This document shows positions 45,831 to 53,300 of a stretch of DNA of 64,000 nucleotides, piece after piece. Positions within the stretch are counted from its first letter, which is position 1. Each line of letters opens with the position of its first letter. The notes beneath the pieces are model-generated. The model worked only from the letters and a program-made list of their open reading frames with translations. It was not told the origin of the DNA and made no database searches. The translations under genes and the position numbers were made by a program. Origin of the DNA: Escherichia coli (GTDB taxonomy: Bacteria > Pseudomonadota > Gammaproteobacteria > Enterobacterales > Enterobacteriaceae); the NCBI RefSeq assembly GCF_003018115.1, contig NZ_CP027457.1. The stretch is one strand, 5' to 3'.

Positions 45831-46061
45831 TTAGATGATAAATGACAGCAGGAATGTGCCCGCCAGAGCGACGACTGAAGCGATAAATGTCGCTGTCGTA
45901 TAGTATTTAAATGTTTCATTGAGCGTAGCGCCGCAATATTGCTTCACCAGCCAGAAAAGCGAGTCCATAACGATCGTGCAGCCAATCGCGCCTGAACCGA
46001 TAGCAATCGCAATAATTTCCGGGCTGATGTCGGGATACAGCGGCAGCACAATGATCCATAT
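45831..46061 (-). pseudogene. dsdX: C-terminal fragment of the D-serine permease (GntP family); 5' part replaced by the csc insertion
   Basis: Frame encodes ..IWIIVLPLYPDISPEIIAIAIGSGAIGCTIVMDSLFWLVKQYCGATL..FII and opens at an in-frame stop; the ORF-track M at 46049 is an internal GTG. Confidence 0.8.
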
Positions 46062-46291
46062 TTATATTTTCTTCTCCAGGTTGGCGATGCCAGTTGGCAT
46101 GTTTTACTTACTTGCCTATATGGTTACTCGTTGGCGAGAACAGAGGCGGAATTTGGGACAATTGTCCGGCAATTATTGTTATTTTTTATTGTATTGCCGT
46201 GTCGGGTGATAGGGCGTTGAGAATTTCGTTGGATCTCGCCAGTGACGTCTGTTTCTGCTACAGTGCCCGTTTTACGGCAAACGGCTTGGGT

Positions 46292-47287
46292 ATGGCTTCA
46301 TTAAAGGATGTCGCACGCCTGGCGGGAGTGTCGATGATGACAGTCTCCCGGGTGATGCATAATGCAGAATCTGTGCGTCCTGCAACGCGTGACCGCGTAT
46401 TGCAGGCAATCCAGACCCTGAATTATGTTCCTGATCTTTCCGCCCGTAAGATGCGCGCTCAAGGACGTAAGCCGTCGACTCTCGCCGTGCTGGCGCAGGA
46501 CACGGCTACCACTCCTTTCTCTGTTGATATTCTGCTTGCCATTGAGCAAACCGCCAGCGAGTTCGGCTGGAATAGTTTTTTAATCAATATTTTTTCTGAA
46601 GATGACGCTGCCCGCGCGGCACGTCAGCTGCTTGCCCACCGTCCGGATGGCATTATCTATACTACAATGGGGCTGCGACATATCACGCTGCCTGAGTCTC
46701 TGTATGGTGAAAATATTGTATTGGCGAACTGTGTGGCGGATGACCCAGCGTTACCCAGTTATATCCCTGATGATTACACTGCACAATATGAATCAACACA
46801 GCATTTGCTCGCGGCGGGCTATCGTCAACCGTTATGCTTCTGGCTACCGGAAAGTGCGTTGGCAACAGGGTATCGTCGGCAGGGATTTGAGCAGGCCTGG
46901 CGTGATGCTGGACGAGATCTGGCTGAGGTGAAACAATTTCACATGGCAACAGGTGATGATCACTACACCGATCTCGCAAGTTTACTCAATGCCCACTTCA
47001 AATCGGGCAAACCAGATTTTGATGTTCTGATATGTGGTAACGATCGCGCAGCCTTTGTGGCTTATCAGGTTCTCCTGGCGAAGGGGGTACGTATCCCGCA
47101 GGATGTCGCCGTAATGGGCTTTGATAATCTGGTTGGCGTCGGGCATCTGTTTTTACCGCCGCTGACCACAATTCAGCTTCCACATGACATTATCGGGCGG
47201 GAAGCTGCATTGCATATTATTGAAGGTCGTGAAGGGGGAAGTGTGACGCGGATCCCTTGCCCGCTGTTGATCCGTTGTTCCACCTGA
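46292..47287 (+). CDS. cscR: LacI-family repressor of the csc sucrose regulon
   Basis: 331 aa from MASLKDVARLAGVSMMTVSRV (LacI HTH); the ORF-track start at 46094 is a spurious 66-codon extension. Confidence 0.88.
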   Translation: MASLKDVARLAGVSMMTVSRVMHNAESVRPATRDRVLQAIQTLNYVPDLSARKMRAQGRKPSTLAVLAQDTATTPFSVDILLAIEQTASEFGWNSFLINIFSEDDAARAARQLLAHRPDGIIYTTMGLRHITLPESLYGENIVLANCVADDPALPSYIPDDYTAQYESTQHLLAAGYRQPLCFWLPESALATGYRRQGFEQAWRDAGRDLAEVKQFHMATGDDHYTDLASLLNAHFKSGKPDFDVLICGNDRAAFVAYQVLLAKGVRIPQDVAVMGFDNLVGVGHLFLPPLTTIQLPHDIIGREAALHIIEGREGGSVTRIPCPLLIRCST

Positions 47288-47294
47288 TATTATG

Positions 47295-48728
47295 CTAACC
47301 CAGTTGCCAGAGTGCCCCATGTTGCACCACAGCCACTCCGTGGGAGGCATAAAGCGACAGTTCCCGTTCTTCTGGCTGCGGATAGATTCGACTACTCATC
47401 ACCGCTTCCCCGTCGTTAATAAATACTTCCACGGATGATGTATCGATAAATATCCTTAGGGCGAGCGTGTCACGCTGCGGGAGGGGAATACTACGGTAGC
47501 CGTCTAAATTCTCGTGTGGGTAATACCGCCACAAAACAAGTCGCTCAGATTGGTTATCAATATACAGCCGCATTCCAGTGCCGAGCTGTAATCCGTAATG
47601 TTCGGCATCACTGTTCTTCAGCGCCCACTGCAACTGAATCTCAACTGCTTGCGCGTTTTCCTGCAAAACATATTTATTGCTGATTGTGCGGGGAGAGATA
47701 GATTGATGCTGCTGGCGTAACGACTCAGCTTCGTGTACCGGGCGTTGTAGGAGTTTGCCATTGCTCTCTGATAGCTCGCGCGCCAGCGTCATGCAGCCTG
47801 CCCAGCCTTCACGTTTTGAGGGCATTGGCGATTCCCACATATCCATCCAGCCGATAACAATACGCCGACCATCCTTCGCTACAAAGCTTTGTGGTGCATA
47901 AAAGTCATGCCCGTTATCAAGTTCAGTAAAATGCCCGGATTGTGCAAAAAGTCGTCCTGGCGACCACATTCCGGGTATTACGCCACTTTGAAAGCGATTT
48001 CGGTAACTGTATCCCTCGGCATTCATTCCCTGCGGGGAAAACATCAGATAATGCTGATCGCCAAGGCTGAAAAAGTCCGGACATTCCCACATATAGCTTT
48101 CACCCGCATCAGCGTGGGCCAGTACGCGATCGAAAGTCCATTCACGTAATGAACTGCCGCGATAAAGCAGGATCTGCCCCGTGTTGCCTTGGTCTTTCGC
48201 CCCGACTACCATCCACCATGAGTCGGCTTCACGCCACACTTTAGGATCGCGGAAGTGCATGATTCCTTCTGGTGGAGTGAGGATCACACCCTGTTTCTCG
48301 AAATGAATACCATCCCGACTGGTAGCCAGACATTGTACTTCGCGAATTGCATCGTCATTACCTGCACCATCGAGCCAGACGTGTCCGGTGTAGATAAGTG
48401 AGAGGACACCATTGTCATCGACAGCACTACCTGAAAAACACCCATCTTTGTCATTATCGTCTCCTGGCGCTAGCGCAATAGGCTCATGCTGCCAGTGGAT
48501 CATATCGTCGCTGGTGGCATGTCCCCAGTGCATTGGCCCCCAGTGTTCGCTCATTGGGTGATGCTGATAAAACGCGTGATAACGATCGTTAAACCAGATC
48601 AGGCCGTTTGGATCGTTCATCCACCCGGCAGGAGGCGCGAGGTGAAAATGGGGATAGAAAGTGTTACCCCGGTGCTCATGAAGTTTTGCTAGTGCGTTTT
48701 GCGCCGCATGCAATCGAGATTGCGTCAT
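47295..48728 (-). CDS. cscA: sucrose-6-phosphate hydrolase / invertase (GH32)
   Basis: GH32 motifs NDPNG and RDP; start taken at MTQSRL (AGGA 9 nt upstream) rather than the ATG at 48737. Confidence 0.9.
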   Translation of the reverse strand: MTQSRLHAAQNALAKLHEHRGNTFYPHFHLAPPAGWMNDPNGLIWFNDRYHAFYQHHPMSEHWGPMHWGHATSDDMIHWQHEPIALAPGDDNDKDGCFSGSAVDDNGVLSLIYTGHVWLDGAGNDDAIREVQCLATSRDGIHFEKQGVILTPPEGIMHFRDPKVWREADSWWMVVGAKDQGNTGQILLYRGSSLREWTFDRVLAHADAGESYMWECPDFFSLGDQHYLMFSPQGMNAEGYSYRNRFQSGVIPGMWSPGRLFAQSGHFTELDNGHDFYAPQSFVAKDGRRIVIGWMDMWESPMPSKREGWAGCMTLARELSESNGKLLQRPVHEAESLRQQHQSISPRTISNKYVLQENAQAVEIQLQWALKNSDAEHYGLQLGTGMRLYIDNQSERLVLWRYYPHENLDGYRSIPLPQRDTLALRIFIDTSSVEVFINDGEAVMSSRIYPQPEERELSLYASHGVAVVQHGALWQLG

Positions 48729-52466: not shown

Positions 52467-52522
52467 AATCAGCGCTCATTGATATAATTCTTTTATTTTA
52501 ACGCTTTAGGTGAATATATCAA

Positions 52523-52948
52523 TTGAGTAATCATGATGATTTACTGGCGGGATTTCTCCGCAAACGACACAGTGTCAGTAAGCTGGTTGTGCACCTTATT
52601 TTTACGACAAAGTATCGACGCAAACTATTCGACAGTCAGATGATCGCTCAGTTGCGTGAGGCTTTTGGCTCCGCTGCGGCAAAGCTTGAATGCGAAATTA
52701 TTGAGATGGACGGGGAGCCAGACCATGTACACCTGCTGGTTGCCTACCCGCCAAAACTGGCGGTCAGTGTGATGGTCAATAATTTAAAATCGGTATCATC
52801 ACGTTTGCTACGCCAGCAGAACGCGCATTTACGTATGCAGAGTAAAACGGGGCTTTTGTGGTCGAGATCGTACTTTGTCTGTAGCACCGGAGGGGCAACG
52901 ATTGAAACGCTCAGAGCCTACGTTCAGAGTCAGTCAACACCTGATTGA
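52523..52948 (+). CDS. tnpA: IS200-type Y1 (HuH) transposase TnpA
   Basis: 141 aa; HuH motif HVHLLV, conserved TTKYRR, catalytic Tyr region (SRSYFV). Confidence 0.88.
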   Translation: MSNHDDLLAGFLRKRHSVSKLVVHLIFTTKYRRKLFDSQMIAQLREAFGSAAAKLECEIIEMDGEPDHVHLLVAYPPKLAVSVMVNNLKSVSSRLLRQQNAHLRMQSKTGLLWSRSYFVCSTGGATIETLRAYVQSQSTPD

Positions 52949-53018
52949 TCTTTAAAGCCCTGCGGGCTTTTCGCCTTATATCCCCGCCCGCATTGGGCGA
53001 GGGTTTACGGCGTTTTTC

Positions 53019-53300
53019 GCTAAAGGAATTGTTGTTAGACGAAGCCTTTTTCGCCTTTACCGGATCGATGCCAACCGAGATGTCTTTCCTCGCAGTCCAT
53101 GCCTTATCCCTTGCCTCCTGCAAAGTCATTAGCGGATATTTTCCTACGGTCAGGATTTTCTCCTTACCGTCAATCTTGTAGCGAAGCTGCCATACCTTTT
53201 TCCCTGACACAGGGACATAAAGGTACAGGCCATTACCATCGAGAAGGCGGTATGGTTTTTCTTTCGGCTTTGCTGCTTCAATCTGCTTAACGGTGAGCAT
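53019..53300 (-). pseudogene. intS: N-terminal 94-codon stub of a P4-like tyrosine integrase (arm-binding domain only)
   Basis: Encodes MLTVKQIEAAKPKEKPYRLLDGNGLYLYVPVSGKKVWQLRYKIDG...NNNSFS, then the frame runs into IS sequence; no catalytic domain. Confidence 0.8.

Follow-up and report, generated by a model that had tools for sequence, protein, structure and literature searches.

An ISEc46 element marks a TTAG-to-TTAG deletion between the csc sucrose island and argW in Escherichia coli

Results

Organization of the dsdA-argW locus

We analyzed a 64,000-nucleotide stretch of Escherichia coli DNA (hereafter, the window). The locus contains, in order, dsdA, a 3′ fragment of dsdX, cscR, cscA, cscK, cscB, an IS200/IS605 element, a 281-nt stub of intS, and argW. 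The initial annotation had proposed the order dsdA-csc-IS-argW, and every feature that it listed was found where it had been placed. When the window was aligned to the genome of K-12, homology stopped at position 46048 and restarted at position 53020. The comparison also bore out the expectation that K-12 has other content here, namely CPS-53, dsdC, and an intact dsdX. Further, the window was 100% identical to the chromosomes of enterotoxigenic E. coli (ETEC) O169:H41 in RefSeq, which carry the same PGAP features.

The dsdA gene, encoding D-serine ammonia-lyase (44485-45813, minus strand; 442 aa), is intact according to its open reading frame and the PGAP annotation of the identical record, and its product differs from that of strain L006 by two amino acids. 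It has been kept despite the loss of dsdC and most of dsdX, and thus of its activator and transporter. The dsdX fragment (45831-46048, minus strand) consists of the last 218 nt (72 codons) of the gene and bounds the csc island on the left. Its translation matched the last 70 positions of the GntP_permease model (371-440 of 440; E = 6e-21), in agreement with the C-terminal fragment called earlier at this edge. Because dsdC and most of dsdX are absent, we predict that D-serine would be unusable as a carbon source.

The csc island

The retained part of the csc island spans positions 46049-51256 (5,208 bp) and is collinear with that of the IS-free csc+ relatives L005 and L006 up to position 51256. 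The final 362 bp that the island normally has, with a fragment of a DUF4942 gene, are absent here. All four csc genes are intact and backed by Pfam or NCBIfam models, and they lie between the truncated dsdX and argW with cscA on the minus strand and the others on the plus strand. The LacI-family repressor gene cscR (46292-47287; 331 aa) matched PF00356 and PF00532, and CscR differs from that of L006 by one amino acid; NCBIfam holds no CscR-specific model. The GH32 invertase gene cscA (47295-48728; 477 aa) matched PF00251 (E = 1e-106) and PF08244, and its product scored 480 bits against TIGR01322 (cut-off 356). The PfkB fructokinase gene cscK (48944-49858; 304 aa) scored 505.7 bits against the fructokinase model NF006957 (cut-off 450). 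The gene of the LacY-family sucrose/H+ symporter, cscB (49930-51177; 415 aa), is intact and matched PF01306 over its full length (E = 1e-193), with three amino acid differences from CscB of L006. The intact genes predict a sucrose-positive phenotype.

That csc is a known, strain-variable sucrose island at argW-dsdA, as the initial annotation had it, agrees with the literature (PMC4366372, PMC3032704, PMC11251922). The csc regulons at argW-dsdA in E. coli EC3132, W, and O157:H7 match the present one in their four genes, in how these are ordered and oriented, in the point at which dsdX is truncated, and in their neighborhood (PMC3032704, PMC4366372, PMC11251922). In contrast to those regulons, the island here lacks its last 362 bp and adjoins ISEc46. 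The Csc proteins differ from a common allele by only 1-3 residues.

Structure of ISEc46

The IS200/IS605 element occupies positions 51257-53019 (1,763 bp), as determined by comparing its ends with yebE-ptrB of K-12, where the site is empty. Its active "top" strand is the minus strand of the window. The name ISEc46 was taken from PGAP, since the element is 99.2-99.5% identical over 1,760 bp to copies with a tnpA that PGAP names ISEc46. Full-length copies with at least 99% identity were present in approximately 455 genomes.

IS605 has divergent tnpA and tnpB, and the two genes are likewise divergent here. The tnpB gene (51297-52466, minus strand; 389 aa), encoding an RNA-guided endonuclease, matched PF01385, PF07282, and PF12323; its product scored 341 bits against NF040570 (cut-off 100) and has the RuvC residues D185, E270, and D351 and two CxxC motifs. 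The tnpA gene (52523-52948, plus strand; 141 aa), encoding a Y1 HUH transposase, matched PF01797 (E = 6e-39); its product scored 141 bits against NF033573 (cut-off 55), with HVH at 68-70 and Tyr133. Divergent promoter-like sites were seen between the two genes (52460-52522).

Both ends of the element have a subterminal hairpin with the same stem, CCTCGCCC and GGGCGGGG, on the same strand, and terminal inverted repeats are lacking, as in other members of the family. At the right end (RE), the hairpin (51266-51285, minus strand) is CCTCGCCC-GACA-GGGCGGGG, a sequence that the window contains only once; it is preceded on the 5′ side by the guide GAAG, and the cleavage site TCAC forms the last 4 nt of ISEc46. 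At the left end (LE), the hairpin (52982-53002, minus strand) is CCTCGCCC-AATGC-GGGCGGGG (DNA fold z = -3.35), with the guide AAAC on its 5′ side. Judging from the intact catalytic residues of TnpA and TnpB and the intact ends, ISEc46 appears to be active.

ISEc46 resembles IS608 of H. pylori, which also has a Y1 HUH TnpA together with TnpB. In both elements, the subterminal hairpins of the two ends share one sequence, lie on the same strand, and contain a T able to bulge, and the target is a tetranucleotide 5′ of LE that is not duplicated (PMC3201880). The guide and target 5′ of the hairpin foot are AAAC and TTAG in ISEc46 but AAAG and TTAC in IS608, and the spacing is 17 versus 19 nt at LE and 9 versus 10 nt at RE (PMC3201880). 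Thus the target of ISEc46 is TTAG rather than TTAC, and its RE terminus is TCAC rather than TCAA.

According to the guide and TAM logic of the TnpB omega-RNA (PMC10055086), the DNA adjoining RE (51237-51256, minus strand; CAGGGCTAAGCATTTTAC...) would be the source of the guide. This DNA is preceded by TTAG in IS-free relatives and by the RE terminus TCAC here. An Rfam scan of 44-58 kb with E up to 0.1 matched only argW and assigned no family to the RE/omega-RNA region.

Target sites and copy number of ISEc46

TTAG was located 5′ of LE at all four ISEc46 sites (intS, yebE-ptrB, yfaX, and aspA-dcuA), which are the four independent sites obtained, most copies being at yebE-ptrB. Compared with the empty sites in K-12, the copies at yebE-ptrB and yfaX are simple insertions without target duplication. 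ISEc46 is a low-copy element, with a median of one place per genome; strain F9792 has one, and the element is single-copy in the present lineage.

The yfaX copy in TUM9754 was considered as a second IS-adjacent deletion and rejected, since alignment to K-12 revealed a simple insertion; a 1.7-kb rhmD deletion in the same strain is 327 bp distant and has no connection with the ends of ISEc46. With respect to replication, two of the four sites fall on each template strand, as reasoned from K-12 map positions and the orientations of the loci.

The intS stub, argW, and the lost prophage

The intS stub (53020-53300, minus strand) is what remains of a CPS-53-type integrase gene, namely its first 281 nt, and is 98% identical to nt 1-281 of K-12 intS and 98.9% identical to the gene of L005. 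It encodes only the arm DNA-binding domain (PF13356), consistent with the N-terminal stub reported earlier at this edge. The integration site argW, encoding tRNA-Arg(CCT) (53462-53536, minus strand), was identified by ARAGORN and by a tRNA match in Rfam. The 15-nt 3′ end of argW occurs once in the window, and the second copy that would mark attR (pawZ in K-12) is absent. Since only the intS stub remains, with neither a second 15-mer nor prophage genes in the window, we regard the structure as a prophage remnant and not a prophage.

CPS-53 (KpLE1) of K-12 shares its attachment tRNA and its integrase gene with this locus, the latter at 98% identity across the initial 281 nt. Unlike CPS-53, the present locus has only the stub and attL; the catalytic domain of the integrase, the prophage genes, torI, and attR are gone. 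Taken together, the stub and the arrangement in relatives indicate that a prophage or prophage remnant formerly occupied argW; what is left of it would no longer be able to excise.

A deletion bounded by ISEc46

The two flanks of ISEc46 are not contiguous in IS-free relatives. LE adjoins a TTAG (53020-53023, minus strand) within codon 94 of intS, and RE adjoins DNA from the flank of csc. In the IS-free relatives, the sequence across the RE-side joint reads, on the top strand of the IS, ATTATTAG followed by CAGGGCTAAGC, so that the csc-flank DNA found at RE is directly preceded by TTAG. The chance of this is approximately 0.0015, TTAG having a frequency of 0.0013-0.0017 per nt on that strand. 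Because the non-contiguous flanks both lie at TTAG, we conclude from the comparison of sequences that ISEc46 marks a deletion from TTAG to TTAG. In this respect it differs from the copies at yebE-ptrB and yfaX, which are simple insertions.

In L006, the 362-bp tail of the csc island runs straight into argW, and in L005 and L015 a prophage remnant and intS lie between the tail and argW. Relative to L005, the nearest relative, 4,233 bp are missing. Accordingly, the exact boundaries given in the initial annotation hold as feature coordinates, but csc ends on the right, at 51256, at a deletion endpoint and not at the natural boundary of the island.

The ISEc46 joint was found at the argW-dsdA locus in only 7 of 5,426 complete E. 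coli genomes, a lineage consisting of O169:H41 ETEC and two other isolates. In GF3-3, the IS and the intS stub are identical. The TnpB omega-RNA guide would now match the IS-free ancestral allele, in which TTAG precedes CAGGGCTAAGC.

Discussion

Three superimposed histories

The locus very probably records three superimposed histories, namely an old csc replacement, a prophage at argW, and the ISEc46-bounded deletion. The first is the replacement of dsdC and the 5′ part of dsdX by csc, which has been published (PMC4366372, PMC3032704, PMC11251922) and is evident here. In this old and widely shared event, a 5.57-kb island consisting of cscR, cscA, cscK-cscB, and the 362-bp tail with the DUF4942 fragment displaced dsdC together with the first 1,120 nt of dsdX. 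In the second, a CPS-53-type prophage or its remnant lay between argW and the csc island, as it still does in many csc+ strains. In the third, an ISEc46-associated deletion in the ancestor of the small lineage extended from the TTAG in codon 94 of intS to the TTAG 79 bp downstream of cscB. It took what followed in intS, along with the prophage, attR, and the 362-bp tail of the csc island, leaving one intact ISEc46 exactly at the joint.

How the deletion arose

We infer both the order of these events and the choice between a two-copy and a one-step route for the third. Within an IS-mediated explanation, recombination between two copies of ISEc46 seems the likeliest route, and we hold this view with slightly better than even confidence. 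Each of the two TTAGs would have received a copy, both in one orientation, and homologous recombination between the copies would have removed the intervening DNA. Two-copy IS recombination in general likewise leaves a single IS between formerly distant sequences, each flank of which is an authentic target. Two nearby insertions of a low-copy element are, however, a real demand on this model. The two-copy precursor was found neither in the 5,426 genomes nor in the metagenome collection. We searched the 5,426 complete genomes for intermediates using synthetic 120-nt junction queries. None of these genomes had a simple ISEc46 insertion in intS, a copy at the TTAG on the csc side next to the DUF4942 flank, or a deletion joint free of the IS. 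Further, exact-pattern scans of the metagenome collection detected neither of the two single-insertion junctions.

A one-step deletion by TnpA appears distinctly less probable, with perhaps one part in four of our confidence. Here, a single ISEc46 would have resided at one TTAG, for example that in intS, and the AAAC guide of its LE would have paired with the distal TTAG on the same strand. A TnpA dimer would hold RE in one active site, normal cleavage and strand exchange would join RE to the DNA that follows the distal TTAG, and the DNA in between would be released as a circle. On the top strand of the IS, each endpoint is located exactly 3′ of a TTAG, as such a reaction predicts, and its chemistry would be that of published excision and integration, in which the LE guide recognizes the target (PMC3201880, PMC10055086). 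The failure of the searches to recover a two-copy or single-insertion intermediate and the single-copy state of ISEc46 in the lineage are also consistent with it. However, ordinary two-copy recombination predicts the structure equally well, and the reaction would need RE to be single-stranded at the same moment as a TTAG no less than 4.2 kb away. Moreover, neither such a reaction nor the phrase "adjacent deletion" was met in the IS200/IS605 literature that we searched.

It is improbable that the deletion came first, with the 4-nt microhomology between the two TTAGs fusing intS to the csc flank and ISEc46 inserting later at the joint. The endpoints do share this microhomology and the joint would hold a legitimate TTAG target, but the sole copy of ISEc46 would have had to pick this TTAG among the tens of thousands that a 4.9-Mb genome contains at roughly 0.0015-0.002 TTAG per nt per strand, and the IS-free joint is missing from all 5,426 genomes.

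The initial annotation had suggested that recombination at the tRNA hotspot, or the IS itself, mediated the replacement of dsdC, dsdX, and the prophage by csc. An IS-mediated rearrangement at this hotspot did take place according to our reading, but the event was a loss and not the route by which csc was gained. The position of the IS between csc and the tRNA-linked integrase favors the earlier reading, which we nevertheless consider very improbable, as it is contradicted by the distribution of the junctions. An identical dsdX/csc junction was present in 2,690 of the 5,426 genomes, 2,625 of these 2,690 have an IS-free right flank of csc, and only the seven genomes above have the IS at the locus. 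Thus, csc was acquired before and independently of the IS, and a junction so widespread indicates that the IS had no role in the gain. Further, ISEc46 ends at 51257, 79 bp past cscB, and no second IS end flanks csc.

It is hardly credible that one or both junctions of the IS are artefacts of assembly: although IS elements may collapse in short-read assemblies in general, nothing specific points to this here, ISEc46 is single-copy in the genome, and misassembly is argued against because the same 10.3 kb, with identical junctions, recurs at 99.5-100% identity in seven complete assemblies that are independent and come from different laboratories and hosts.

Significance

The exchange of dsd for csc is a textbook niche adaptation of E. 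coli, in which sucrose utilization is gained and D-serine catabolism is lost. It has long been established, and RefSeq contains this very sequence under the same annotation, so that both are already known. The locus is otherwise ordinary, because its only lineage-specific feature is ISEc46 on a prophage-removing deletion, and the significance of the finding is small. What is added here is a precise delimitation of ISEc46 with its TTAG target, the shortening of the csc island by 362 bp in this lineage, and a clean natural case in which a TTAG-to-TTAG deletion that erased the argW prophage is bounded by an IS200/IS605 element. The joint may be useful as a marker of the lineage that comprises O169:H41 ETEC and its relatives, and it offers a concrete substrate design for asking whether TnpA makes adjacent deletions. 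If the one-step reaction were true, it would be a previously undescribed adjacent-deletion route for peel-and-paste elements, and one by which the TnpB guide of the element itself would come to target the ancestral allele.

Apart from this locus, a 422-aa AT-rich open reading frame at mlaA-fadL was considered as a possible novel gene and rejected, as it is an allele of yfdF.

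Gene content of the argW-dsdA locus

Based on an ORF listing, a tRNA scan and domain searches, the locus lies between emrK-emrY (+ strand) upstream and yfdC and mlaA downstream. It comprises an intact dsdA (44485-45813, - strand), a 72-codon 3' fragment of dsdX (45831-46048, -), cscR (46292-47287, +), cscA (47295-48728, -), cscK (48944-49858, +), cscB (49930-51177, +), an IS200/IS605 element with tnpB (51297-52466, -) and a divergent tnpA (52523-52948, +), an intS stub encoding the arm-binding domain only (53020-53300, -) and argW, a tRNA-Arg(CCT) gene (53462-53536, -). This layout confirmed the initial annotation, whose span (45831-53300) starts at the dsdX-fragment stop codon and finishes at the start codon (ATG) of the truncated integrase.

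In K-12, the order is argW, CPS-53 (intS to torI, with the attR called pawZ), dsdC, dsdX and dsdA. Homology of the window to K-12 ends at 46048, the last 218 nt of dsdX being kept, and restarts at 53020 with the first 281 nt of intS. The position of cscRAKB near argW, in place of dsdC and part of dsdX, was described previously (PMC4366372, PMC3032704 and PMC11251922, which cite Jahreis 2002 and Moritz & Welch 2006). A 120-nt probe with the dsdX|csc junction at its midpoint was matched over at least 80% of its length in 2,690 of 5,426 complete E. coli genomes. The csc replacement is known and old. None of the four Csc proteins is truncated, and they differ from a common allele by 1-3 residues. 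The predicted phenotype is use of sucrose, without catabolism of D-serine as a carbon source.

Chromosomes of ETEC O169:H41 (F6326-C1, 2014EL-1345-2 and others) were 100% identical over 10.3 kb round the locus, and GF3-3 and ET350, isolates from unrelated hosts, were 99.5% identical over the same 10.3 kb. The identical RefSeq records carry the same PGAP features as found here, including the partial DsdX and a partial Arm-DNA-binding protein, and name the transposase 'IS200/IS605-like element ISEc46 family transposase'. The spacer between the dsdX fragment and cscR, upstream of the latter, has a 12-bp indel (CGTTGAGAATTT, 46215-46226), flanked by a CGTTG repeat, that was present in the window and in the csc+ strain NZRM4169 (spacer, 243 bp) and absent from GF3-3 and the csc+ strains TUM13936 and Res13-Sevr-PER07-33 (spacer, 231 bp).

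Structure and distribution of ISEc46

Compared with the empty K-12 site, ISEc46 is 1,763 bp long (51257-53019) and lies 3' of a TTAG without duplication; 51257-53016 was matched end to end in other genomes at 99.2-99.5% identity. About 455 genomes carry at least 80% of the element, mostly as a single copy and usually at yebE-ptrB. TTAG directly before the left end (LE, the intS side) was also found at yfaX, aspA-dcuA and intS. On the top strand (the minus strand of the window), the stem CCTCGCCC...GGGCGGGG is present at both ends. At LE, the four bases 5' of the stem are AAAC and the cleavage site TTAG is 17 nt upstream, and the terminus of the right end (RE, the cscB side) is TCAC, 9 nt after the RE stem. 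This guide/cleavage arrangement mirrors that of IS608, in which the AAAG/TTAC pair has a spacing of 19 nt to the foot of the hairpin and TCAA one of 10 nt (PMC3201880). TnpA keeps the HUH motif and Tyr133, and TnpB keeps D185, E270, D351 and the zinc finger.

The 56-bp tnpB-tnpA spacer (52460-52522) contains strong divergent sigma-70-like promoters. The + strand promoter reads TTAACA-17-TATAAT and has a TG extension; the - strand promoter reads TTGATA-16-TAAAAT. The first 38 nt at RE (51257-51294; terminus and hairpin) had 100% matches on several plasmids of E. coli, where no gene is annotated; these matches may represent solo RE remnants or miniature derivatives. Further, elements that encode TnpB and are 78-80% identical are frequent on plasmids, where they occupy 379 places. 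TUM9754, which carries ISEc46 in yfaX, also has a 1.7-kb deletion that took out rhmD together with portions of yfaV and yfaX; the sequences overlap by 12 nt at the joint (L007, the yfaV-yfaX locus of this strain, 1174-1185). We rejected this deletion as an IS-end event: it is 327 bp from ISEc46 and the IS ends are untouched.

A deletion bounded by ISEc46

In IS-free csc+ strains, cscB is followed by 362 bp more, containing a small DUF4942 gene fragment. This tail adjoins the argW 3' end directly in Res13-Sevr-PER07-33; in TUM13936 and NZRM4169, the two are separated by the remnant of a prophage, with intS at its end. The cscB flank-DUF4942 sequence is unbroken in 2,625 genomes and is interrupted at 51256 in the window. 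An inverted repeat at about 51184-51231, downstream of cscB and upstream of this joint, was not called by a simple terminator scan.

If ISEc46 had simply been inserted in intS, the rest of intS would be expected after RE; instead, the cscB flank follows. Relative to TUM13936, the window lacks 4,233 bp, comprising the 362-bp island tail, the attR and torI region, an IS3 element, a glycosyltransferase gene and intS from codon 95 to the end. On the ISEc46 top strand, IS-free relatives read ...GGCGATTATTAG|CAGGGCTAAGC..., with TTAG exactly at the far deletion endpoint. The frequency of TTAG on this strand is 0.0013-0.0017 per nt, and an endpoint independent of the IS would fall there with a chance of about 0.0015. 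The presence of so rare a motif at the far endpoint shows that the deletion runs from TTAG to TTAG and is linked to ISEc46. The initial annotation had suggested recombination or IS-mediated replacement at this locus, which is only partly correct: the element is tied to the disappearance of the prophage and the island tail but not to gain of csc. The csc-IS locus is a known island in a genome already annotated, to which the TTAG-to-TTAG deletion adds a small but clean point.

Origin of the deletion

We favour a route in which each TTAG would have received an ISEc46 copy in the same orientation and the two copies then underwent homologous recombination. This is a common, documented route, and the one-step alternative requires that two sites separated by at least 4 kb be single-stranded simultaneously. 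In that alternative, which we consider less likely, the LE guide would pair with the distal TTAG in one aberrant TnpA reaction, RE would be joined to the DNA beyond and the intervening DNA would be freed as a circle; the phrase 'adjacent deletion' occurs in none of the IS200/IS605 papers that a literature search listed. The junction states considered were ISEc46 simply inserted in intS (CCTTGTAAATCNCA|GTGACTGCTCCCCGCC), ISEc46 at the csc-side TTAG (GGCGTTTTTCG|CTAATAATCGCCTAATCC) and an IS-free joint (GCTTAGCCCTG|CTAAAGGAATTG). Intermediates that would tell the two-copy from the one-step route were found neither in the 5,426 complete genomes nor in metagenomes. Deletion through TTAG microhomology with later insertion of ISEc46 at the joint is very improbable, as the sole ISEc46 copy must have chosen one TTAG among tens of thousands and the IS-free joint occurs in 0 of 5,426 genomes.

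The cscB|RE joint (51256|51257) was found in exactly 7 of the 5,426 genomes. GF3-3 is the same as the window from 50744 to 54700 and the csc-IS-argW part is nearly identical between them; the two differ by 36 substitutions over 10.3 kb, and 26 of these are clustered at 44427-45967, mostly within dsdA and some just beyond. The cluster resembles a patch of local recombination in dsdA, and together with the identity across the joint it suggests that the joint arose once and that recombination occurred nearby later.

Predicted consequences and neighbouring variation

Because attR and the integrase catalytic domain are gone, the prophage remnant is probably fixed in place. Under the model in which the omega-RNA guide of TnpB is the DNA just past RE (PMC10055086, PMC8612924), the predicted guide here is CAGGGCTAAGCATTTTAC..., and its cognate target, TTAG + CAGGGCTAAGCATTTTAC, would be the IS-free allele present in about 2,600 genomes. 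The motif before CAGGGCTAAGCATTTTAC in the window is TCAC, with 2 mismatches to TTAG, as would be expected for avoidance of self-cleavage.

Between mlaA and fadL, an AT-rich 422-aa ORF (55774-57042, - strand; about 32% GC) had no matches in Pfam or NCBIfam. It is an allele of K-12 yfdF (352 aa) with an internal duplication of about 70 aa, and the GF3-3 variant is 345 aa long with a different C-terminus. Thus, yfdF appears to differ among strains in length and repeat number.
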